64,000 nucleotides of DNA, from assembly GCA_017483735.1 (NCBI GenBank), contig JAFUVF010000004.1, forward strand, positions 3,186-67,185, read 5' to 3'. The position numbers were made by a program, and so were the translations under genes. Each line of letters starts with the position of its first letter. The stretch's first letter is position 1. Shown piece by piece: positions 2,939 through 12,373 of the stretch. Origin of the DNA: Lachnospiraceae bacterium. Lineage in GTDB: Bacteria; Bacillota; Clostridia; Lachnospirales; Lachnospiraceae. Below the pieces are notes generated by a model. The model had not been told where the DNA came from. It ran no database searches and saw only the letters and a list, made by a program, of their open reading frames with translations.

Positions 2939-2968
2939 ATTATAAAACGGTTACCGACCAAAAGTCAA
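2939..2968 (-). promoter_or_regulatory. candidate sigma-70 promoter for the Tad-like operon (TTGACT-18-TATAAT)
   Basis: The minus strand reads TTGACT (2963-2968), an 18-nt spacer, then TATAAT (2939-2944). This lies about 95 nt upstream of the 2841 start. The -35 box overlaps the 3' end of the acetylesterase CDS. Confidence 0.45.
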
Positions 2969-3684
2969 TAACCGTTTTTCGCAAAAACATCATCCTCGGG
3001 AATCTCTGTAAGTATCATATCCTCATAGGGTTTCCCAAGCTCCTTTAGCCCCTCTGCTATCATACCAGCATATGTAAATGCCCCATAATATCTTAAATGC
3101 GTGTTATCCGCCTTCCCCTCCGGATGGGTAAGATACAGCCCCTCCCTAAAGTTCATATACAGCGCCTTACTCTCATCATCTCCAAGCCTTGTAAGCAAAT
3201 CCCTGCTCTTTTTGCACAGGTCTATGACCGGTACGTTTTCTTTTCCGCCGAAATCAAGCTCCGCTTCGACATAGGGCGTGTGGGCGCTTGGCTTTAGCTT
3301 TCCCGTATCATCAAAAAGGCGCCTCTCTATTGGGGTCATTATCACGGGATATGCCGATACTGCTCTGGCAGTATCCGTAAAAAACTTAAGATTATCCCTA
3401 AAGCTTGTCTGCGGATCCGTGTAGCGCAGGGAATCCTCCTTCTTTTCATCATTATGTCCGAACTGTATAAATAGGAAATCCCCCTTGCCGATACCGGCCT
3501 GAACCGGCTTAAATCTGCTCTCGTCTATGAAGCTCTTGGTGCTCCTGCCGTTCTTTGCAAGGTTTATGACCTGATACTCGGGCTTTAAAAATATGGGAAG
3601 CACCTGTCCTATCCCTGTCTGTGGGAATTTCAGATGTACATTGGTCTGAACCGTGGAATCTCCGATATAATATACTTTAGGCAT
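2965..3684 (-). CDS. rhgT: rhamnogalacturonan acetylesterase (SGNH/GDSL hydrolase, CE12-like)
   Basis: 239 aa carrying the SGNH blocks IGDSTVQ (block I), GRSTKSF (II), FGHND (III) and DNTHL (V). The overall pattern matches Bacillus RhgT/YesT. Confidence 0.8.
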   Translation of the reverse strand: MPKVYYIGDSTVQTNVHLKFPQTGIGQVLPIFLKPEYQVINLAKNGRSTKSFIDESRFKPVQAGIGKGDFLFIQFGHNDEKKEDSLRYTDPQTSFRDNLKFFTDTARAVSAYPVIMTPIERRLFDDTGKLKPSAHTPYVEAELDFGGKENVPVIDLCKKSRDLLTRLGDDESKALYMNFREGLYLTHPEGKADNTHLRYYGAFTYAGMIAEGLKELGKPYEDMILTEIPEDDVFAKNGY

Positions 3685-3774: not shown

Positions 3775-4638
3775 TTACTCTTTTACGGCACCTATATTCA
3801 CACCTGTTACGAAATACTTCTGCAGGAACGGATACAGAGCCATGAAAGGAAGCACCGCCACTACGATAGCTGCATAGTACAGGGTATTCTGGGATACCTT
3901 GTATGCAGAGGTAGGCGTATCTCCGTCCATGACGAGGACTCTTAGGATATACTGGAAGTTTACCTGGTCTCTGTCTACGATGTAAATCTGAACAGTTGAG
4001 TAGTCGTTCCACACCGTAACCGCATACATAAGTCCGATGGATGCTAACGCTGCCTTGGAAAGGGGAAGCACTATCTTAAAGAAGATTCCCATAGGGGAGC
4101 AGCCATCTATCTTCGCCGCCTCAAAGAGAGAGCCGGGTATGCCTTCAAAGAAGTTTCTCATAAGCACAAGGTTGTAAACGTTCATACCGTGCTTGACAAC
4201 CAATATCCACATATTGTTAGTCAAATGAAGCTGTCTCATAACCAAGTACTCGGGAATCATGCCTCCGGAGAATATCATGGTAAAGAGAAGGAAGAACGCC
4301 AATGCGTTACGTCCGGGCATCTCAAACTGGCAGAGCACATAACCTCCCAGAGTACTCATAATAAGTCCGAGGAGTGTTCCCAAAACCGTGGTAATTACAG
4401 AGTTAAGGAAGGGTCTGTACAGCTTCTGTGTGCCGAAGATTGTGAGATATCCGGCAGCCGTGGGCTGTGAAGGCCAAAGCTTAAACTGGTATACACCCAC
4501 CGCATTGAAGGAATCCACTATAACCTTCCAGATAGGTATGATGACTATGAGTGCAACAATAACAAATACTATGTAGTTTACAACGTCGAAAACATGAACC
4601 TTTTTCTTGGGCTGTCTGAATTCTATATCTTTTGCCAT
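3775..4638 (-). CDS. carbohydrate ABC transporter permease (LplC/YtcP-like), copy 1
   Basis: 287 aa and multi-TM, with the EAA-type loop FEAAKIDGCSPMGIFFKIVLPL. It is a paralogue of 11510-12373. Confidence 0.9.
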   Translation of the reverse strand: MAKDIEFRQPKKKVHVFDVVNYIVFVIVALIVIIPIWKVIVDSFNAVGVYQFKLWPSQPTAAGYLTIFGTQKLYRPFLNSVITTVLGTLLGLIMSTLGGYVLCQFEMPGRNALAFFLLFTMIFSGGMIPEYLVMRQLHLTNNMWILVVKHGMNVYNLVLMRNFFEGIPGSLFEAAKIDGCSPMGIFFKIVLPLSKAALASIGLMYAVTVWNDYSTVQIYIVDRDQVNFQYILRVLVMDGDTPTSAYKVSQNTLYYAAIVVAVLPFMALYPFLQKYFVTGVNIGAVKE

Positions 4639-4652
4639 TTTTCAAGCCCTCC

Positions 4653-5612
4653 TTATATAATACCGCGTCCGCGGACTTTTTTACTTGCCCAGTTGCAGAC
4701 AAGCACGAGCATACAGCCAACAAGTGACTTGAAGAGACCAACCGCAGTCGTATATCCATAGTTGGGTATTGCGGAAAGGAAGGTCTTTCTGTATACGTAT
4801 GTGGATATAACATCAGATACATCCAACACACGGGTATTGTACATAACGAATACAGACTCGAACATATTGAGCACCTTTGCAAGATTAAGGATAAGTACGA
4901 TAAGTACTGTGTTTGCAAGGGCGGGTACTGTTACATACCATATCTTCTGCATTCTGGTTGCGCCGTCTATGTCGGCCGCCTCATAGAGCTCGGGATTGAT
5001 ACCTGAAAGTGTTGCAAGGAAGATAACTGTTCCCCAACCTGTCTCCTTCCAGATATTTACCAGATAGAACACCGGACGCCACAGTGCAGGCTCATGTAGG
5101 AAGTCAATGCTCTCCGTGATAAGCCCCCATTCCTTTAAGGTCTCATTTATCATACCTGTGGATGATGCGGAGAGGAAAAGGGTAAATATAGCCGCCGTAA
5201 CTGTCCATGACATAAAGTGGGGCAGATAGATGACCGTCTGCAAAGCCTTCTTTGCAAGTAGATTACCCATCTCATTTATAAATACCGATACGATGACAGA
5301 TGTTGCCGTCGTTATTATCAATTTCATTATTGAAAGCTGGAGCGTGTTGAAGAAGGAGCGCCAGAAGTCTGACGAATCCTTGCCGAAGAACATGCTCTGG
5401 AAATGCTTGAAGCCTACAAATTCAATTTTCTTAAGTGTGTAATCATAGAACGAATAGCGTACGCCTAACATAGGCCAATAATAAATTATAAGCACATAGA
5501 TAAGAACCGGCAGGAACATTATATAGTAGCCTCTATGGTTCCATATCCGCGTTCCTAAAGGTTTGTGACGGATAACGGTTCCGTCTTCCGTTGCGAGAAC
5601 TTTTTTACTCAT
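4653..5612 (-). CDS. sugar ABC transporter permease (LplB/YteP-like), copy 1
   Basis: 319 aa with the EAA loop YEAADIDGATRMQKIWYVTVPAL. It is a paralogue of 10533-11495. Confidence 0.9.
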   Translation of the reverse strand: MSKKVLATEDGTVIRHKPLGTRIWNHRGYYIMFLPVLIYVLIIYYWPMLGVRYSFYDYTLKKIEFVGFKHFQSMFFGKDSSDFWRSFFNTLQLSIMKLIITTATSVIVSVFINEMGNLLAKKALQTVIYLPHFMSWTVTAAIFTLFLSASSTGMINETLKEWGLITESIDFLHEPALWRPVFYLVNIWKETGWGTVIFLATLSGINPELYEAADIDGATRMQKIWYVTVPALANTVLIVLILNLAKVLNMFESVFVMYNTRVLDVSDVISTYVYRKTFLSAIPNYGYTTAVGLFKSLVGCMLVLVCNWASKKVRGRGII

Positions 5613-5715: not shown

Positions 5716-7374
5716 TTACTGTGCATTGAGCTCGTCAAGTATGGTCTGAGCGGTGTCGCCCCACTTTGCCTGATACTCAGCAATAGCGTCAGCGCCGGTC
5801 TTCTTGCCGGTAACAACCTCGTTCATAAGCTTGGTCTTGTCACTTACGATATCAGAGTTTACCTCGGTAAGAGTATCGGAAGCTGCTGCCTGAGGAGCAT
5901 CTACGCAGTTCTCGGTAAAGAACTTGTTACCCTTCTCAACAAGGGGATCGCTATCAACGAAGCCGTTGGTAAGAGGTGCAATAACAAGGACTGCATCAAG
6001 GTGATTCTTCTTCCAGATGGAGTTAGGATCGTTGGGAGTGGGTCTCAAGTGGAACTGACCATCCTCATACTTGTACTCCTTCTTCTTCTCAGGGTCATCA
6101 GGGTTGGTAACGAACTCCTCAGCCTTGGTAGACCAGTGAACATCCTCAGCACCATAGGTCCAGAGAGTCTGTACCTTGTCGCCGTCAAGCATGGTGTCAA
6201 GAAGTGCATCGAAGATAGCCTGCTCACGGGAATCATCTCCGTCGCCATCATCAGTGATTACCCAAACGGGAGCCTCACGGTTGATGTAGCCGCCCCAGGT
6301 ATCCTTGATCTCCTTGATAGGAGGAAGCTGTACGAGTCTGTCATCGCCGAGCTCGGAATCTACTTCCTGCTTCTCCATGTTGTCGGTAAGAGTTCTGAGC
6401 CATGTACCTGCCCAATAAGTGAACACACCTTCGGAAGTGGTCTGATCGTTGGAGAAGAACTTCTCACGAGCGATCTTTGTGGTAGCTTCCTCAGTATCCT
6501 TATCAATGAGGCCATCCTTGTATGCGGTTGCAAGTCTGTCAAGCGCATCGATGGTAGCCTGCTCCTGGAAACCGTCTACCCAAGTGCCGTCCTTCTGATA
6601 GAAAGAAGGATAAGCACCCTGCCAGAACTCGGGCATGTAGTTGATGTAAGGAGCCTCGTCAAGCTTACCGAAGCCTGCTGCGATAACGCCGGTGGTCTTT
6701 CCGTTGGAGAAAGCCTTGAGCATATTGTAGTAGTCATCATAAGTCTTGATGTCATCGATCTTAAGTCCTGCTGCATCAAGCCAAGACTGCTTTACATAGG
6801 TAACGCATCCGTTTCCGTATGTAGGAGCGAATCCATAAAGCTCTCCGGAGGAGGTCTTCATGTTCTCATTGATTGAAGGAAGAGTGATCCTTGACTGGAA
6901 CTCTGCATTTGCATATGCGTCAGCGAGGTTCCAAAGGATACCGGTTGACTGATACTGTCTGAACATGGTAGCGCTCATAATGAGTGCATCGGGATAGCTT
7001 CCGTCTCCGGGCTGTCCGGTGGTAAGAAGCTGGGATACCTTATCAGAGTATCCTGAGTGCTCAGGCTGATTGATGTGAAGCTTAATGGGATGTCCGATCC
7101 TCTCGGAAACTGCTGCTTCCCACTGCTCAACGAAAGCATCCTGTCTGTTGTCTACGTTAGCGGTTACGGTACCGTCAACTGTGATGTAGAGATCCTCAAG
7201 TACATAAGGCTCTGCCTCAGTAGTTGTGGTGTTTCCACCATCGGTGGAAGTGGTGGTGCTTCCGCTGTTGCCGGAATCAGTAGATCCACCGTTATCGGTA
7301 GAGGTACCGCCGCAGGCTGCAAGAGATGCAACCATAGCAGAAGCGAGAAGTAATGCTAATACTTTCTTCTTCAT
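5716..7374 (-). CDS. extracellular solute-binding lipoprotein (LplA/YtcQ-type, family 1), copy 1
   Basis: 552 aa with lipoprotein signal MKKKVLALLLASAMVASLAACGG and a Ser/Thr/Gly-rich linker. It is the first gene of the operon and a paralogue of 8757-10436. Confidence 0.9.
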   Translation of the reverse strand: MKKKVLALLLASAMVASLAACGGTSTDNGGSTDSGNSGSTTTSTDGGNTTTTEAEPYVLEDLYITVDGTVTANVDNRQDAFVEQWEAAVSERIGHPIKLHINQPEHSGYSDKVSQLLTTGQPGDGSYPDALIMSATMFRQYQSTGILWNLADAYANAEFQSRITLPSINENMKTSSGELYGFAPTYGNGCVTYVKQSWLDAAGLKIDDIKTYDDYYNMLKAFSNGKTTGVIAAGFGKLDEAPYINYMPEFWQGAYPSFYQKDGTWVDGFQEQATIDALDRLATAYKDGLIDKDTEEATTKIAREKFFSNDQTTSEGVFTYWAGTWLRTLTDNMEKQEVDSELGDDRLVQLPPIKEIKDTWGGYINREAPVWVITDDGDGDDSREQAIFDALLDTMLDGDKVQTLWTYGAEDVHWSTKAEEFVTNPDDPEKKKEYKYEDGQFHLRPTPNDPNSIWKKNHLDAVLVIAPLTNGFVDSDPLVEKGNKFFTENCVDAPQAAASDTLTEVNSDIVSDKTKLMNEVVTGKKTGADAIAEYQAKWGDTAQTILDELNAQ

Positions 7375-7412
7375 TTCTTTCCTCCCTGTTTAATGAATGA
7401 AATGGTATAATT
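7226..7412. repeat. IR-L: high-identity core of the inverted repeat (5' UTR/SD plus first ~50 codons of SBP1)
   Basis: The reverse complement matches 8717-8908 with about 5 substitutions, a 1-nt indel and a 3-nt indel by hand alignment. This includes a perfect run of about 96 nt from AACAGGGAGGAAAGAA through codon 27. Confidence 0.85.
7403..7411 (+). promoter_or_regulatory. inward-facing extended -10 element TGgTATAAT inside IR-L
   Basis: The plus strand reads TGGTATAAT, pointing into the recombinase cassette and antisense to the recombinase 3' end. It is the mirror copy of the element at 8718-8726. Confidence 0.4.
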
Positions 7413-7437
7413 TATGCAGGAACAATTTCCCACACAA
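7410..7437 (-). promoter_or_regulatory. candidate promoter for ABC operon 1 (TTGTGT-16-TGcATAAAT)
   Basis: On the minus strand the -35 is TTGTGT (7432-7437), followed by a 16-nt spacer ending in TGc, then the -10 ATAAAT (7410-7415). The -10 straddles the boundary between unique spacer DNA and IR-L. Confidence 0.45.
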
Positions 7438-7560
7438 TGCAATCATATCATTATTGTGTCGTTTAGGCAAGAAATTTTTGTCAAAAAGCAATAAAAAACA
7501 CTTGAAATTTACGCCGTTTTTTCGTTATTTTTTTGACAAATCCCTGACTGTCCAGAGCCA

Positions 7561-8622
7561 TTATGGAGCCAAGCCGTATTCATCATTAAGCTTTTGCGCC
7601 AACTCCCTCTGTTTTCCGGGATATAAATGCGAATATGTGTCCAAAGTGGTCTCTATCTTTTCGTGTCCCAGCCTCTCCGCAATGAGAAGCGGCGTCACGC
7701 CCATTTCTATGAGAAGTGATGCGTGGGAATGCCTGAGGTCATGCACCCTTATCCTATGAAGCTTTGCCATGTCAGCATGCCGTTTCAGCGAATATTCTAT
7801 ATGAAAGCGGCTTACTCCAAAAATTCTTCCGTCATCGGGGCAACCCTTTCTTATTATATATTCTGCAACAGCATAACACAAGAAGTCCGGCAGAGTAACC
7901 GCCCTCACGCCTTTTTTTGACTTTGGCGGAGTCGTCACATCCTGTCCCTTTATGCGTTGATATGATTTTGTTATGCTTATACTCCCCTCCTCGGTATTGA
8001 TATCATTCGGTGTCAGAGCCAGAAGCTCTCCCACTCTCATTCCTGTCCAGTACAGCAATAGGAAGATAAGCCTGTCGGCATAATCCTCATCCGAAGAAAG
8101 GGTCTTTATAAAGACTTCAAATTCTTCCCTCGTCCAAAAGTTCAGCTCCTTCGTCTTGTTATTTCCTATGCTTCCTGCCCTCCTGCACGGATTGTCATTT
8201 AGTCCGTAATACTTTTCGGCATACGAGAAAAGTGCCTTAAGCTGGCTGTTTAACTGCTTTAAATACGTGGGCGAATACTCCCTTTTAAGCATTTCGTTCT
8301 GCCAGCCTCTGATGTCCGGCGGTTTGATATCGCACAGGTACATGTTTTTAAAGTACGGTATTATGTGCTTTTCGAACAAATACCGCTTGCCCCTGACTGT
8401 ATTCACACGAAGCCGTACATCCATATCGTCAAGATACAGTCTTGCAAACTCATCAAACCTTACACTCATATATTTCTGCATGGATTCCTTGAAATTCTTT
8501 TCCCATTCAAGAGCATCCCGCTTACGCATAAATCCCCTTTTGTTTTTCTTGCGCCGAACCCCTTGCCAGTCCACATAATAGAACTGGCAGCGCCATTTCT
8601 TTCCGTCCTTGTTCGCAGACAT
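7561..8622 (-). CDS. site-specific tyrosine recombinase (phage integrase family)
   Basis: 353 aa with an N-terminal arm-type DNA-binding region (KKWRCQFYYVDWQG). The catalytic signature is present: WTGMRVGE (Arg), HDLRHSHAS (His-x-x-Arg) and LGHEKIETTLDTYSHLY (His ... Tyr). An AGGAGG sits 8 nt upstream of the ATG. Confidence 0.9.
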   Translation of the reverse strand: MSANKDGKKWRCQFYYVDWQGVRRKKNKRGFMRKRDALEWEKNFKESMQKYMSVRFDEFARLYLDDMDVRLRVNTVRGKRYLFEKHIIPYFKNMYLCDIKPPDIRGWQNEMLKREYSPTYLKQLNSQLKALFSYAEKYYGLNDNPCRRAGSIGNNKTKELNFWTREEFEVFIKTLSSDEDYADRLIFLLLYWTGMRVGELLALTPNDINTEEGSISITKSYQRIKGQDVTTPPKSKKGVRAVTLPDFLCYAVAEYIIRKGCPDDGRIFGVSRFHIEYSLKRHADMAKLHRIRVHDLRHSHASLLIEMGVTPLLIAERLGHEKIETTLDTYSHLYPGKQRELAQKLNDEYGLAP

Positions 8623-8716
8623 AATTTCCTCCTATCAAAAAATGAGAGCCAAAATGGAGCCACGGAAAAAATTGTCATAATTTAATCCGTCGATTCCCTT
8701 ATGAACCCTCGCCCCT

Positions 8717-8908
8717 AATTATACCATTTCAATTCATTATAACAGGGAGGAAAGAAATGAAGAAGAAAGTATTAGCATTACTTCTCGCTTCTGCTATGGT
8801 TGCATCTCTTGCAGCCTGCGGCGGTACCTCTACCGACAACGGTGGATCTACCGATTCCGGCAACAGCGGAAGCACCACCACCACTTCCACCGACGGTGGA
8901 AACACCAC
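8717..8908. repeat. IR-R: high-identity core of the inverted repeat (5' UTR/SD plus first ~50 codons of SBP2)
   Basis: Partner of 7226-7412; see that entry. Confidence 0.85.
8718..8726 (-). promoter_or_regulatory. extended -10 promoter TGgTATAAT inside IR-R, oriented to drive the recombinase
   Basis: The minus strand reads TGGTATAAT, about 95 nt upstream of the recombinase ATG. I found no other good promoter between it and the gene. Confidence 0.45.
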
Positions 8909-10436
8909 TACCGCAGAGCCTTACGTACTTGATGAGCTCTACGTAATCGTTGACGGTACTCTTACTGCTACCGTTGACAGCGGTCAGGATGCTTTTATTG
9001 AGCAGTGGGAGCAGCTTGTAGGCGAAAAGATCGGACATCCCATCAAGCTTACCATCGAGCAGCCCGAGCACTCCGGCTATCAGGCAACAGTATCCCAGAT
9101 ACTGTCCACCAGACAGCAGAGCGATGCGGATTATCCCGATGCAATGATAATGAGCGCATCAATGTTCAGAGAGTATCAGACCACCGGTATTCTTTGGGAT
9201 ATGGCAAACGCTTATGACAACGCTGATTTCCATGCAAATGTCCGTTTCCAGAACAACGAGTTCAACAAGGACTCCCAGGGACGTATGTATGGTATCGCAC
9301 CTACCAGAGGAAACGGATGCGTTACCTATGTAAAGCAGACCTGGCTTGACGCAGTAGGCATGAAGCTTGATGACATCAAGACCTTCGATGACTACTACAA
9401 GATGCTCAAGGCATTTGCCGAGAACGACCCCGACGGCAACGGAAAGGGCGGCACCTACGGCGCTATCGCTGCCGGCTATGCAAATATCGGCGAGGCTCCT
9501 TACATCAACTATCTTCCTGAGTTCTGGCAGGGCGCATATCCCGCAATCCTCCAGAGAGACGGCGTATGGGTTGACGGATTCCAGGAGCAGGCTACCATCG
9601 ATGCTCTTACCAGACTCCATCAGGCTTATGTTGACGGTGTAATCGATCCCGATACCGAGGAAGCTGGCACCAAGCAGGCTCGTGAGAAGTTCTGGAATGC
9701 AGATCAGAGTGTTGCATCCGGAACCTTCGCATACTGGGCAGGAACCTGGTATAACAATATTACCAACAACATGATCAAGCAGGGCATTATGGCAGAGGGA
9801 GACCAGCAGAAGGATCTTGTAATGCTTCCTCCAATCAAGGAAATTCAGGACACCTGGGGCGGACTTATCGACAGAGAGGCTCCCGTTTGGGTAATCACTG
9901 ATGACGGCGACGGCGATGATTCCCGTGAGCAGGCTATCTTTGATGCTCTCATCGAGACCATGCTCGACGGCGACAAGGTAGAGACCCTCTGGGTATACGG
10001 TGCAGAGGATGTTCACTGGTCTGTAAAGGCTGAGGATTTCGAGACTGTTACCGGAGATGACAAGAAGGTTACCGAGTATCATTATGAGGACGGACAGTTC
10101 CACTTAAAGCAGTCCCCTAATGACCCTAACTCTATCTGGTCCAAGAACCACCTTGATCCCATCCTTGTAATCGTACCCCTTACCAACGGTTATGACGATC
10201 CCAACCCCGTTGTACAGGCAGGTAACGACTTCTTCAACAAGTATGCGATTGCAGCTCCTGTTTCACCCGCAAGTGAGACTCTTACCGAGATTCAGTCCGA
10301 GCTTACCGATGCTAAGAAGGTAGCTATCAATGCGGCCGTTACCGGCGAGAAGACTCCTGAGGAGGCTGTTGCAGAGTATGTTGCAGCTTGGGGAGATACC
10401 GTTCAGGGAATTCTTGACGAGTTAAACGCTCAGTAA
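8757..10436 (+). CDS. extracellular solute-binding lipoprotein (LplA/YtcQ-type), copy 2
   Basis: 559 aa. The signal peptide and linker match copy 1 (one extra Thr). The mature domain is roughly two-thirds identical to copy 1 by eye. Confidence 0.9.
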   Translation: MKKKVLALLLASAMVASLAACGGTSTDNGGSTDSGNSGSTTTTSTDGGNTTTAEPYVLDELYVIVDGTLTATVDSGQDAFIEQWEQLVGEKIGHPIKLTIEQPEHSGYQATVSQILSTRQQSDADYPDAMIMSASMFREYQTTGILWDMANAYDNADFHANVRFQNNEFNKDSQGRMYGIAPTRGNGCVTYVKQTWLDAVGMKLDDIKTFDDYYKMLKAFAENDPDGNGKGGTYGAIAAGYANIGEAPYINYLPEFWQGAYPAILQRDGVWVDGFQEQATIDALTRLHQAYVDGVIDPDTEEAGTKQAREKFWNADQSVASGTFAYWAGTWYNNITNNMIKQGIMAEGDQQKDLVMLPPIKEIQDTWGGLIDREAPVWVITDDGDGDDSREQAIFDALIETMLDGDKVETLWVYGAEDVHWSVKAEDFETVTGDDKKVTEYHYEDGQFHLKQSPNDPNSIWSKNHLDPILVIVPLTNGYDDPNPVVQAGNDFFNKYAIAAPVSPASETLTEIQSELTDAKKVAINAAVTGEKTPEEAVAEYVAAWGDTVQGILDELNAQ

Positions 10437-10472
10437 AAGTAAACCATTTATAAAGACATTTATGTTCTGTCA

Positions 10473-10500
10473 GATATCCCGTCCTTCGGGGCGGGATATC
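10473..10500 (+). promoter_or_regulatory. intercistronic stem-loop between the SBP and permease genes (copy 2)
   Basis: GATATCCCG...CGGGATATC forms a 9-bp outer stem with a GC-rich interior, followed by TTTAAAAAAAA. It occupies the same position as the copy-1 hairpin but has an unrelated sequence. Confidence 0.5.
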
Positions 10501-10532
10501 TTTAAAAAAAACGAAAGAGATGGGTAAAGCTT

Positions 10533-11495
10533 ATGGCAAAAAACAAATTTGAAACAACCTCAAACGGAGTGCCTATAAGACACAAGCCATTAGGAATGCG
10601 TATCTGGAACAACAGAGGGTTTTATCTCATGTTTCTTCCCGTGTTTATCTTCGTTCTAATCATCAACTATTGGCCTATGTTGGGTATCCGCTATTCATTC
10701 TATGACTACACAGTAAAGAAAATGGAATGGGTGGGGCTTAAACATTTCCAGGATATGTTCTCCGGCAAAAACTCTTCTGATTTCTGGAGATCATTTTTTA
10801 ACACACTTGAACTTTCGATAATGAAATTATTGATAACGACTGCCGCATCGGTAATCGTATCCGTATTTATAAATGAAATGGGCAATCTTCTTGCCAAAAA
10901 GACATTGCAGACAGTTATCTACCTGCCTCACTTCCTTTCATGGGCGGTTACGGCAGCTATATTTACTCTGTTCCTCTCAGCTTCATCTACAGGCTTTGTA
11001 AACGAGACCTTAAAGAGCTGGGGAGTACTGGAACGAAGTATAGACTTCCTGCATCTGCCAACGTGGTGGCGGCCTATCTTCTATCTCATAAACATATGGA
11101 AAGAGACAGGATGGGGAACGGTTATATTCCTTGCCACATTATCCGGTATCAATCCGGAGCTCTACGAGGCGGCGGATATAGACGGTGCAACCAGAATGCA
11201 GAAGATATGGTATGTAACAGTACCCGCCCTTGCAAACACGGTAATTATAGTGCTTATACTGAATCTTGCAAAGGTTCTCAATATGTTCGAGTCGGTATTC
11301 GTACTTTACAACACCAGAGTTTATGATGTGTCGGACGTTATCTCCACATACATCTACAGAAAGACCTTTATGGCTGCGGTTCCCAATTACGGCTTTACCA
11401 CCGCTGTAGGTCTGTTTAAATCTATTGTGGGCGCATTCCTTGTACTCGTCTGCAACTGGGCAAGCAAAAAAATCCGCGGACGCGGAATTATATAA
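10533..11495 (+). CDS. sugar ABC transporter permease (LplB/YteP-like), copy 2
   Basis: 320 aa, very similar to 4653-5612 along its whole length. Confidence 0.9.
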   Translation: MAKNKFETTSNGVPIRHKPLGMRIWNNRGFYLMFLPVFIFVLIINYWPMLGIRYSFYDYTVKKMEWVGLKHFQDMFSGKNSSDFWRSFFNTLELSIMKLLITTAASVIVSVFINEMGNLLAKKTLQTVIYLPHFLSWAVTAAIFTLFLSASSTGFVNETLKSWGVLERSIDFLHLPTWWRPIFYLINIWKETGWGTVIFLATLSGINPELYEAADIDGATRMQKIWYVTVPALANTVIIVLILNLAKVLNMFESVFVLYNTRVYDVSDVISTYIYRKTFMAAVPNYGFTTAVGLFKSIVGAFLVLVCNWASKKIRGRGII

Positions 11496-11509
11496 GGAGG
11501 GCTTGAAAA

Positions 11510-12373
11510 ATGGCAAAGGATATAGAATTCAGAAAGCCCAAGACAAAGATACATCTTTTCGATGTTATAAACTATATAGTGTTTGTTATTGTGGCGCTTA
11601 TCGTCCTTATTCCACTGTGGAAGATTGTGGTGGATTCCTTTAATGCAGTGGGTGTATACCAGTTCAGATTCTGGCCCAACCGCCCCACGGTAGCTGGATA
11701 CCTTACGATTTTCTCCACAAATAAGCTGTACAGACCCCTTCTCAATTCCTTTATCACTACGATATTCGGAACCTTGCTGGGGCTTGTGCTCTCCACTCTC
11801 GGAGGCTATGTACTAACTCAGGAGGAAATGCCCTTCAGAAACGGGTTGTCCTATTTTCTCCTGTTTACCATGATATTCTCCGGAGGACTTATCCCCGAGT
11901 ATCTGGTAATGAGACAGCTCCACCTTGTAAACAATATGTGGATATTGGTTGTTAAGCACGGTATGAACGTTTACAACCTCGTGCTTATGAGAAACTTCTT
12001 TGAAGGCATTCCCGGCTCCCTCTTTGAGGCGGCGAAGATAGATGGCTGCTCCCCTATGGGAATCTTCTTTAAGATAGTGCTTCCCCTTTCCAAGGCAGCA
12101 TTAGCGTCCATCGGACTTATGTTTGCGGTTACCGTATGGAACGATTATTCAACGGTTCAGATCTATATAAACAACCGTGATCAGGTAAACTTCCAGTACA
12201 TTCTTCGTGTAATGGTCATGGACGGAGATACGCCGACGACACAGTATGCGGTATCACAGAATACCCTGTACTATGCGGCGATAGTCGTAGCCATCCTGCC
12301 ATTCATGGTGCTGTACCCGTTCTTGCAGAAGTATTTCGTACAGGGCGTAAATGTAGGTGCAGTAAAGGAATAA
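11510..12373 (+). CDS. carbohydrate ABC transporter permease (LplC/YtcP-like), copy 2
   Basis: 287 aa. It shares long identical protein runs with 3775-4638, for example NNMWILVVKHGMNVYNLVLMRNFFEGIPGSLFEAAKIDGCSPMGIFFKIVLPLSKAALASIGLM. Confidence 0.9.
   Translation: MAKDIEFRKPKTKIHLFDVINYIVFVIVALIVLIPLWKIVVDSFNAVGVYQFRFWPNRPTVAGYLTIFSTNKLYRPLLNSFITTIFGTLLGLVLSTLGGYVLTQEEMPFRNGLSYFLLFTMIFSGGLIPEYLVMRQLHLVNNMWILVVKHGMNVYNLVLMRNFFEGIPGSLFEAAKIDGCSPMGIFFKIVLPLSKAALASIGLMFAVTVWNDYSTVQIYINNRDQVNFQYILRVMVMDGDTPTTQYAVSQNTLYYAAIVVAILPFMVLYPFLQKYFVQGVNVGAVKE

Follow-up and report, generated by a model that had tools for sequence, protein, structure and literature searches.

A recombinase-bearing cassette that may act as an either/or promoter switch between two sugar importers in a rumen Lachnospiraceae bacterium

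A putative invertible cassette between two importer operons

We analyzed a stretch of 64,000 nucleotides (the window) of contig JAFUVF010000004.1 (positions 3,186 to 67,185 of the forward strand; assembly GCA_017483735.1), which belongs to a rumen Butyrivibrio-like member of the Lachnospiraceae. Two paralogous operons for carbohydrate ATP-binding cassette (ABC) importers are found here in divergent orientation, with the gene of a tyrosine recombinase between them and an inverted repeat on each side of this gene (IR-L on the left, IR-R on the right). On balance we favor the plausible reading that this recombinase cassette flips and in doing so acts as an either/or switch between the two sugar importers. 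Mutually exclusive expression of the importers is the best reading that remains for the locus, with expression presumably following the orientation of the cassette, and we infer that the recombinase catalyzes the flip and that flipping is both reversible and frequent. The whole case is built on in silico evidence from one strain cluster.

The flippable unit would measure ~1.35 kb, with its ends within 7295-7390 and 8741-8836, and would work as a one-directional transcription cassette in which three parts follow one another and all point the same way: first the recombinase promoters, within the inner part of IR-R, then their gene, and last the outward promoter (P_out). All good promoter-like sites are co-directed and no intrinsic terminator was predicted on the minus strand between the recombinase and operon 1; hence, we consider the cassette a polar transcription module. 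As oriented in the window, it would fire into operon 1, and operon 2 would face the promoterless end upstream of the recombinase. After a flip, operon 2 would instead lie downstream of P_out and receive whatever transcription reads through the recombinase gene. Since the exchange would take place inside sequence that is identical in both arms, neither of the substrate-binding proteins (SBP1 in operon 1, SBP2 in operon 2) would be altered and no new junction would be created. Nothing of the former element is left but the integrase and both arm-type sites, so that inversion probably involves a lambda-Int-like complex on inverted core sites.

Promoters at the two ends of the cassette

Promoter-like sites were scanned with a sigma-A-type position-weight matrix, using dinucleotide shuffles of each site's own region as controls; the matrix and its scores are approximate. 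The strongest site of the whole intergenic DNA is P_out. It scores 13.6, a value that places it among the best 0.007% of positions in the window and that 1.1% of the shuffles reach (p ~0.011). In homologous operons elsewhere (n=30), the best site is in most cases a conserved TTGCAA-17-TG-TAAAGT, located 62-72 nt (mode 67) upstream of the ATG. Given that P_out agrees with this conserved promoter in build and in its 67-nt distance, it seems to be the native promoter of the family, lying wholly in unique cassette DNA. By prediction and comparison, the segment would thus contain the outward promoter expected of an inverton.

The original prediction for this locus had placed the promoter of operon 1 elsewhere, as a hybrid completed at only one cassette end by the first bases of IR-L; P_out lies 30 nt further in. 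The quoted motifs do exist on the minus strand (TTGTGT at 7437-7432, followed by 16 nt ending in TGc and by ATAAAT at 7415-7410). As an extended -10 element, the site is weak, with ATAAAT matching TATAAT at 3/6 positions and lacking the A at -11. Its best register (TTGTGT-17-TAAATT) scores 7.3, which is in the top 0.2% of the window and below the mean best score of the shuffles (8.3). Completion at one end only does not fit the data either, since the conserved promoter maps to P_out and the crossover in the flipped contig described below falls outside the inner repeat. With that crossover inside a 96-nt identical block, the inner repeat, its indels, and TGGTATAAT travel with the cassette, so no hexamer is split or re-completed.

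Other parts of the prediction fared better. CCTAAT is present at 8714-8719 and TGGTATAAT faces inward in both arms. Operon 2 does appear promoterless in this orientation, the best site facing it scoring 5.4, below the shuffle mean of 6.4. The recombinase promoter was correctly located inside the repeat, although it would not be a stationary, repeat-borne promoter, as it moves along with the gene. In IR-R there are two candidates for this role, TGGTATAAT and TGTTATAAT, with scores of 10.0 and 8.8; the second is confined to the right arm because of one 1-nt indel and, like P_out, had been overlooked. The recombinase ATG is preceded by a good ribosome-binding site (AGGAGG). The string TGNTATAAT occurs eight times in the window against 3.2 expected, and three of these eight copies are in the putative switch.

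At both cassette ends (7403-7470 and 8673-8726), outward and inward promoter-like sites stand face-to-face, with predicted starts ~17-23 nt apart. The left end combines a strong outward site with a weaker inward one and the right end has the reverse, which suggests that promoter occlusion contributes to the polarity. Between the recombinase stop and P_out there is also an AT-rich 11-bp inverted repeat (TTTGTCAAAAA / TTTTTGACAAA, 42 nt apart, 7477-7540); as a terminator, this hairpin is not canonical and we found it unconvincing. The sole terminator-like site on the plus strand (8187-8207) is weak and within chance. No alignable similarity past the promoter position was detected when the two unique cassette ends were compared with each other or with the upstream regions of relatives, and Rfam gave no match within 7000-9100.

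Inverted repeats and the orientation of the cassette

The arms of the repeat are ~200 nt long and, as inverted repeats do in invertons, they bound a discrete segment. Reading inward, 141 nt are 99% identical (two mismatches, at 7279 and 7294), followed by two 1-nt indels; the innermost 15 nt match perfectly in both arms (TGAAATGGTATAATT), and the inner edge of IR-L lies at 7412/7413. The repeats extend into the coding sequence of the binding proteins, where the linker past the lipobox Cys, although hypervariable when orthologues are compared, is the same in SBP1 and SBP2. With such a linker identical while the mature parts of the proteins are 67% identical, the repeat identity is better explained by homogenization or recent exchange than by selection on the peptide. 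Within each arm (7372-7404 and 8725-8759), a local dyad, CATTTCTTTC-N13-GAATGAAATG, surrounds the ribosome-binding site. Once transcribed, it would fold the AUG region onto the upstream 5' untranslated region (5'UTR), in hairpins that differ between the arms because of the two indels. This dyad could be a translational element or the core site of the recombinase.

We found a single contig in the flipped orientation (L096; 2,459 nt; ENA ERZ28655154, sample SAMN15829990). It contains operon 1, SBP1, and the repeat, followed directly by the upstream region and the first 58 codons of the recombinase. Aligned with both arms at once, it shows left-arm bases at 7279 and 7294, and from the first indel (7390/7391) inward its sequence is that of the right arm. 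The exchange point is therefore inside the 96-nt perfect block, with left-arm markers outside and right-arm indels inside. Two further substitutions separate this contig from the window. No other flipped contig came up in exact look-ups, for which the recombinase and fragments of it were used along with SBP2 and the 552- and 539-aa calls of SBP1. Two Logan contigs (L002 and L084) stop inside the repeat and are uninformative for orientation.

Operon 2 is not a dead copy. Its reading frames are intact, and all the differences found in it between lineages (four of four, in a sister lineage that has the same orientation as the window) are synonymous, which indicates that it is maintained by selection in spite of being promoterless in this orientation. 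Such upkeep fits periodic expression.

The recombinase and its origin

The recombinase has three domains recognized by Pfam, PF14657 (Arm-DNA-bind_4; E = 1.8e-9), PF14659, and PF00589 (Phage_integrase; E = 4.8e-23). In an alignment with its relatives, all family-invariant residues are kept, among them R196, H294-x-x-R297, H320, and Y330, i.e., the catalytic set of a tyrosine recombinase; conservation is also high in the N-terminal arm-binding domain. Among 5.8 billion proteins, the closest one outside its own cluster is at most 57% identical. A FimB/FimE-type invertase was discarded: its scores are 34.5 bits for NCBIfam model PRK09870 (cut-off 221) and 26.4 bits for PRK09871 (cut-off 222), and the recombinase is ~150 aa longer than that type, with the added arm-binding domain.

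Its relatives are instead the integrases of integrative mobilizable elements, ~50-57% identical (about 55%) and with the same domain architecture; the nearest proteins (P0003 and P0004) are found in mobile-element contexts. These elements measure ~8-10 kb and carry genes for helix-turn-helix regulators and for NikA-like, AAA_25, and Mob_Pre proteins. Most of them are located at the 3' end of guaA (whose product ends in KPPGTIEFE), with direct repeats of the core GAGTTyGArTAA. In most of the relatives' loci, the motif TGGCTC-N5-TGGCTC is found at both element ends at fixed distances from the core, 58-59 nt at the left end (52/52 loci) and 104-105 nt at the right end (9/9). Motif pairs at a fixed distance are what would be expected of arm-type sites. 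The guaA-inserting family is widespread in Lachnospiraceae (L003-L082; e.g., L008 at 5548 and 12725; L064 at 3037, 3229, and 13818), with a very constant att architecture and, in L064, tandem arrays. A contig labeled Parabacteroides distasonis (L004, CAVAKZ010000092.1) has a Lachnospiraceae-type element integrase and arm motifs, either by bin contamination or by transfer between phyla.

In the window, TGGCTC-N5-TGGCTC has just two copies in 64 kb, one on each side of the recombinase gene, as part of an 18-nt direct repeat that flanks it. The inner repeat edges lie 54 nt (IR-R, motif copy 1) and 142 nt from these motifs. Together with PF14657, the two motif pairs, as predicted sites, would make this an arm-binding (heterobivalent) integrase. 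A complete guaA-targeting integrative mobilizable element is not what we see: the mobilization and regulator genes and the adjacent guaA are missing, and the flanking repeats are inverted. The cassette looks like a mobilizable element cut down to the integrase and both arms, with inverted instead of direct recombination sites.

Comparison of candidates in the inner repeat and the 96-nt block with the family core identified no core site for the recombinase. The inner-repeat candidate GAATTGAAATGG matches GAGTTyGArTAA at 7/12 positions and lies 61 nt from motif copy 1 (58-59 in the family); it is unconvincing, as it has an indel between arms and lies inside (that is, on the cassette side) of the crossover point of the flipped contig. 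A second candidate, CCGCCGCAGG in the 96-nt block, resembles CCGCCGAGG of the family at the wrong distance, and the spacer of the dyad CATTTCTTTC-N13-GAATGAAATG is too long.

Weighing the switch against other explanations

Several observations speak against an active switch. About 10 independent assemblies of the strain cluster (99.9-100% identical) all have the orientation of the window. Flanking inverted repeats were found in 0 of the 80 closest recombinase relatives (contigs of one genome per species, with a positive control run), and 35 loci related to the binding proteins (from genomes and JGI metagenomes) contained neither a recombinase nor a second SBP copy; among these 80 relatives and 35 loci there was no second species with the arrangement. 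In the sister lineage, the A7 tract of the recombinase gene is A8, a frameshift that truncates the protein before the catalytic His/Arg/Tyr (L083, L085, L086, and L087, independent assemblies), and the Logan contig L084 has one extra base over the cassette. Besides the missing core site, the arms differ by two 1-nt indels near where the family geometry would put it. The promoter calls are predictions from an approximate matrix and from comparison, and the inward extended -10 elements could drive antisense transcription across the cassette to operon 2.

The flipped contig has weaknesses of its own. It is short, and its last 189 nt (2271-2459) are unrelated DNA joined at codon 58 of the recombinase. 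Read on the other strand, this tail corresponds to the 3' end of a gene of the EEP family (its product ending in FESDHLPVCADITF). It may have been joined on by the assembler, as a chimera, or by a genuine rearrangement that knocks out the recombinase in the flipped orientation. The same marker pattern would also be expected from a low-coverage de Bruijn assembly mis-joined across the 96-nt block. Considering the substitutions, the unrelated tail, and the possible mis-join, we take this contig as moderate evidence and not as proof.

The strongest competitor, which we nevertheless consider unlikely, is a static relic, in which a one-off inverted duplication trapped what was left of an integrase between the two operons, flipping has ceased or was never programmed, operon 1 is on, operon 2 is silent or driven from elsewhere, and the flipped contig is an artifact. 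It agrees with the single orientation of all long contigs, the chimeric tail of the flipped one, the frameshifted recombinase of one lineage, and the confinement of the arrangement to one strain cluster. It is harder to reconcile with a repeat that is 99-100% identical over ~165 nt, hypervariable linker included, when the rest of the proteins is only 67% identical, with a recombinase that retains every family-invariant residue and both arm motifs, and with the exclusively synonymous differences in operon 2.

The chances are smaller still for RecA-dependent homologous recombination between the identical blocks of 96-141 nt, which would flip the promoter as in the sap locus of Campylobacter fetus and leave the integrase as a passenger. 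The only mapped crossover does lie in the long identical block and not in the short inner repeat predicted by the arm-to-core geometry, and there are indel differences between the arms near the predicted core position. Yet blocks of 96-141 nt are short for RecA to drive inversion efficiently, precisely between the repeat edges lies a full-length integrase with a complete catalytic set and both arm motifs, and the local dyad around the ribosome-binding site in the repeat could be the core.

We regard as improbable that the cassette flips without on/off control, with both operons transcribed in both states (for instance, from the inward extended -10 elements) and the orientation tuning levels or the expression of the recombinase. 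Both arms do carry a strong inward TGGTATAAT, and the plus-strand terminator-like site at 8187-8207 is too weak to be counted on; nonetheless, an antisense untranslated transcript of 1.3 kb would be a poor driver of an operon, and the promoter asymmetry between the cassette ends is clear. Last, the hybrid promoter, with its -35 and half of the -10 in unique DNA (7437-7413), the rest in the repeat, and a stationary recombinase promoter, can practically be set aside, because its motifs, although present, form a site below the regional shuffle mean, the conserved family promoter is at 7470-7442, and the inner repeat moves with the cassette in the flipped contig.

If the either/or switch is accepted, a more elaborate version of it can be proposed, which we advance tentatively. 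The integrase of a guaA element, arm sites included, would have been domesticated as the motor of a toggle that moves a single native promoter between two importers of plant oligosaccharides, as a form of diet bet-hedging, and some lineages would have become locked by inactivation of the recombinase (the A7-to-A8 change, and the codon-58 truncation in the flipped contig). That the A8 lineage and the flipped contig with its truncated recombinase may be such locked variants is speculation.

Comparison with known inversion systems

By analogy, the closest system in function would be the promoter inversion at the sap S-layer locus of C. fetus, and the cassette also resembles invertible promoters in general. 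Dworkin and Blaser (1996-97) reportedly described in sap a segment that can invert, lies between opposed paralogues, and contains a single outward promoter; the identical 5' regions of the paralogues are said to act as the inverted repeats, so that a flip picks the paralogue and leaves the proteins unchanged. The likeness thus covers the one promoter on the segment, the opposed paralogues, and the identical 5' ends as repeats. In contrast, sap inversion uses ~600 bp of homology, is largely RecA dependent, has no recombinase in the segment, and concerns the surface antigens of a pathogen, whereas here the recombinase gene and its arm sites are the main content of the cassette and the targets are nutrient importers.

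The H segment of Salmonella, inverted by Hin, also bears a promoter together with its own recombinase gene and determines the choice of FljB or FliC. However, Hin belongs to the serine recombinases, and a co-transcribed repressor, not a promoter moved between two operons, brings about the either/or choice. FimB and FimE, which act on fimS of Escherichia coli, differ as short tyrosine invertases without an arm-binding domain. With the guaA-element integrases, the recombinase shares domain architecture, arm-binding domain, and TGGCTC-N5-TGGCTC, but here the integrase and arm motifs are all that is present, between inverted repeats and away from guaA. As for nutrient uptake, Nakayama-Imaohji et al. 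(2009) are said to have reported a SusC/SusD shufflon in Bacteroides fragilis (with Tsr-type invertases) in which inversion selects the uptake proteins. It differs in belonging to Bacteroidetes, in involving outer-membrane TonB-dependent transporters, and in exchanging the 5' ends of genes while the promoter stays in place.

The known cases of phase variation through DNA inversion mainly concern surface antigens, restriction specificity, and the outer-membrane nutrient receptors of Bacteroides. If true, the switch proposed here would extend such phase variation to metabolic bet-hedging, with cytoplasmic-membrane sugar importers of a fiber-degrading rumen Firmicute. It would also clearly exemplify how an arm-binding integrase, arm sites intact, can be put to use as a chromosomal invertase, and would offer a compact cassette (~1.35 kb) in which to dissect the role of arm sites in inversion.

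In the invertible promoters of gut bacteria and the RecV switches of Clostridioides difficile (cwpV, flgB, cmrRST, and pdcB), a tyrosine recombinase flips a short segment whose orientation sets the expression of the adjoining operon; at flgB, control acts after initiation and involves Rho, and some such switches are found in Firmicutes (PMC7446863; PMC9286219; PMC5903667). RecV-type switches turn one operon on or off through repeats of ~20-30 bp, and the recombinase is usually encoded elsewhere, whereas here repeats of ~200 nt reach into coding sequence, the cassette contains the recombinase gene, and expression would alternate between two operons. Among predicted programmed inversions, genes for ABC binding proteins are under-represented (ratios 0.36-0.41; PMC9881135), and arm-binding tyrosine recombinases are regarded as a hallmark class of mobile elements, the known invertases being 'simple' (PMC8138268). 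The cassette therefore differs from known switches in its resident arm-binding integrase with arm sites, in its ABC sugar-importer targets, and in its rumen Firmicute host. In the literature that we searched, neither this locus nor any inversion switch of Butyrivibrio was described.

The two importer operons

The coordinates of the features are collected in Table 1. Both operons code for a large lipoprotein binding protein, with a lipobox (LAAC), and two permeases of the MalF/MalG type (all four match BPD_transp_1 and are UgpA/UgpE/MalF/MalG-like), as would be expected of CUT1-type importers (LplABC- or aldouronate-like). No ATPase gene is present in either of them. SBP1 and SBP2 share 67% protein identity, and outside the repeats the operons are 71-85% identical at the DNA level.

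Table 1. Features of the putative switch and its two operons (window coordinates)
Feature	Position	Strand	Remarks
Predicted P_out, TTGCCT-17-TGaTATGAT	7470-7442	-	Operon promoter, 67 nt upstream of the SBP1 ATG
IR-L	7216..7412		SBP1 codons 1 to ~53, ribosome-binding site, 38 nt of 5'UTR
IR-R	8717..8918		Right arm; perfect block 8741-8836
96-nt perfect block	7295..7390 = 8741-8836		Ribosome-binding site, ATG, codons 1-26 (signal peptide)
Tyrosine recombinase	7561..8622	-	353 aa; arm-binding, SAM-like core-binding, and catalytic domains
A7 tract in recombinase gene	7913..7919	-	A8 in sister lineage
Predicted arm-type motif, copy 1, TGGCTCCATTTTGGCTCT (sense strand)	8645..8662	-	23 nt upstream of recombinase ATG
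Predicted arm-type motif, copy 2, TGGCTCCATAATGGCTCT (sense strand)	7554..7571	-	Overlaps recombinase stop codon
Predicted recombinase promoter TGGTATAAT in IR-R	8726-8718	-	From the scan
Second predicted recombinase promoter TGTTATAAT	8744-8736	-	Only in the recombinase-proximal arm
Predicted inward TGGTATAAT in IR-L	7403..7411	+	Score 8.6; antisense to recombinase, face-to-face with P_out
Best site facing operon 2, TGtCATAAT	8673-8681	+	Lacks a -35
Hybrid promoter of the original prediction, TTGTGT-16-ATAAAT	7410..7437	-	Straddles the inner edge of IR-L; within chance
SBP1 (operon 1)	5716..7374	-	552-aa lipoprotein substrate-binding protein
Operon 1 ABC permeases	5612..4653, 4638..3775	-	Pfam BPD_transp_1
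Operon 1 GDSL esterase	3684..2965	-	Pfam Lipase_GDSL
Operon 2	8757..12373	+	SBP2 8757..10436 (559 aa)
Operon 2 permeases	10533..11495, 11510..12373	+	Pfam BPD_transp_1

In other Butyrivibrio genomes, the orthologous operons are single copy and have a cre-like site, ATGAAAACGCTTACA, in the 5'UTR (L089 at 6930-7000, L091, and L092); genes for LacI, uxaC, altronate dehydratase, and GH43 adjoin them. The operons of the window seem to be stripped of the usual sugar-responsive control, since the cre-like site and all these neighbors are missing. The gene order of operon 1 is the same in the orthologous Butyrivibrio operons, and SBP1 is 75-83% identical to Butyrivibrio proteins named in the sources as putative aldouronate-transport binding proteins. 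Both binding proteins are also weakly similar to AlgQ1/AlgQ2 (PDB), and SBP1 to family-1 binding proteins as well.

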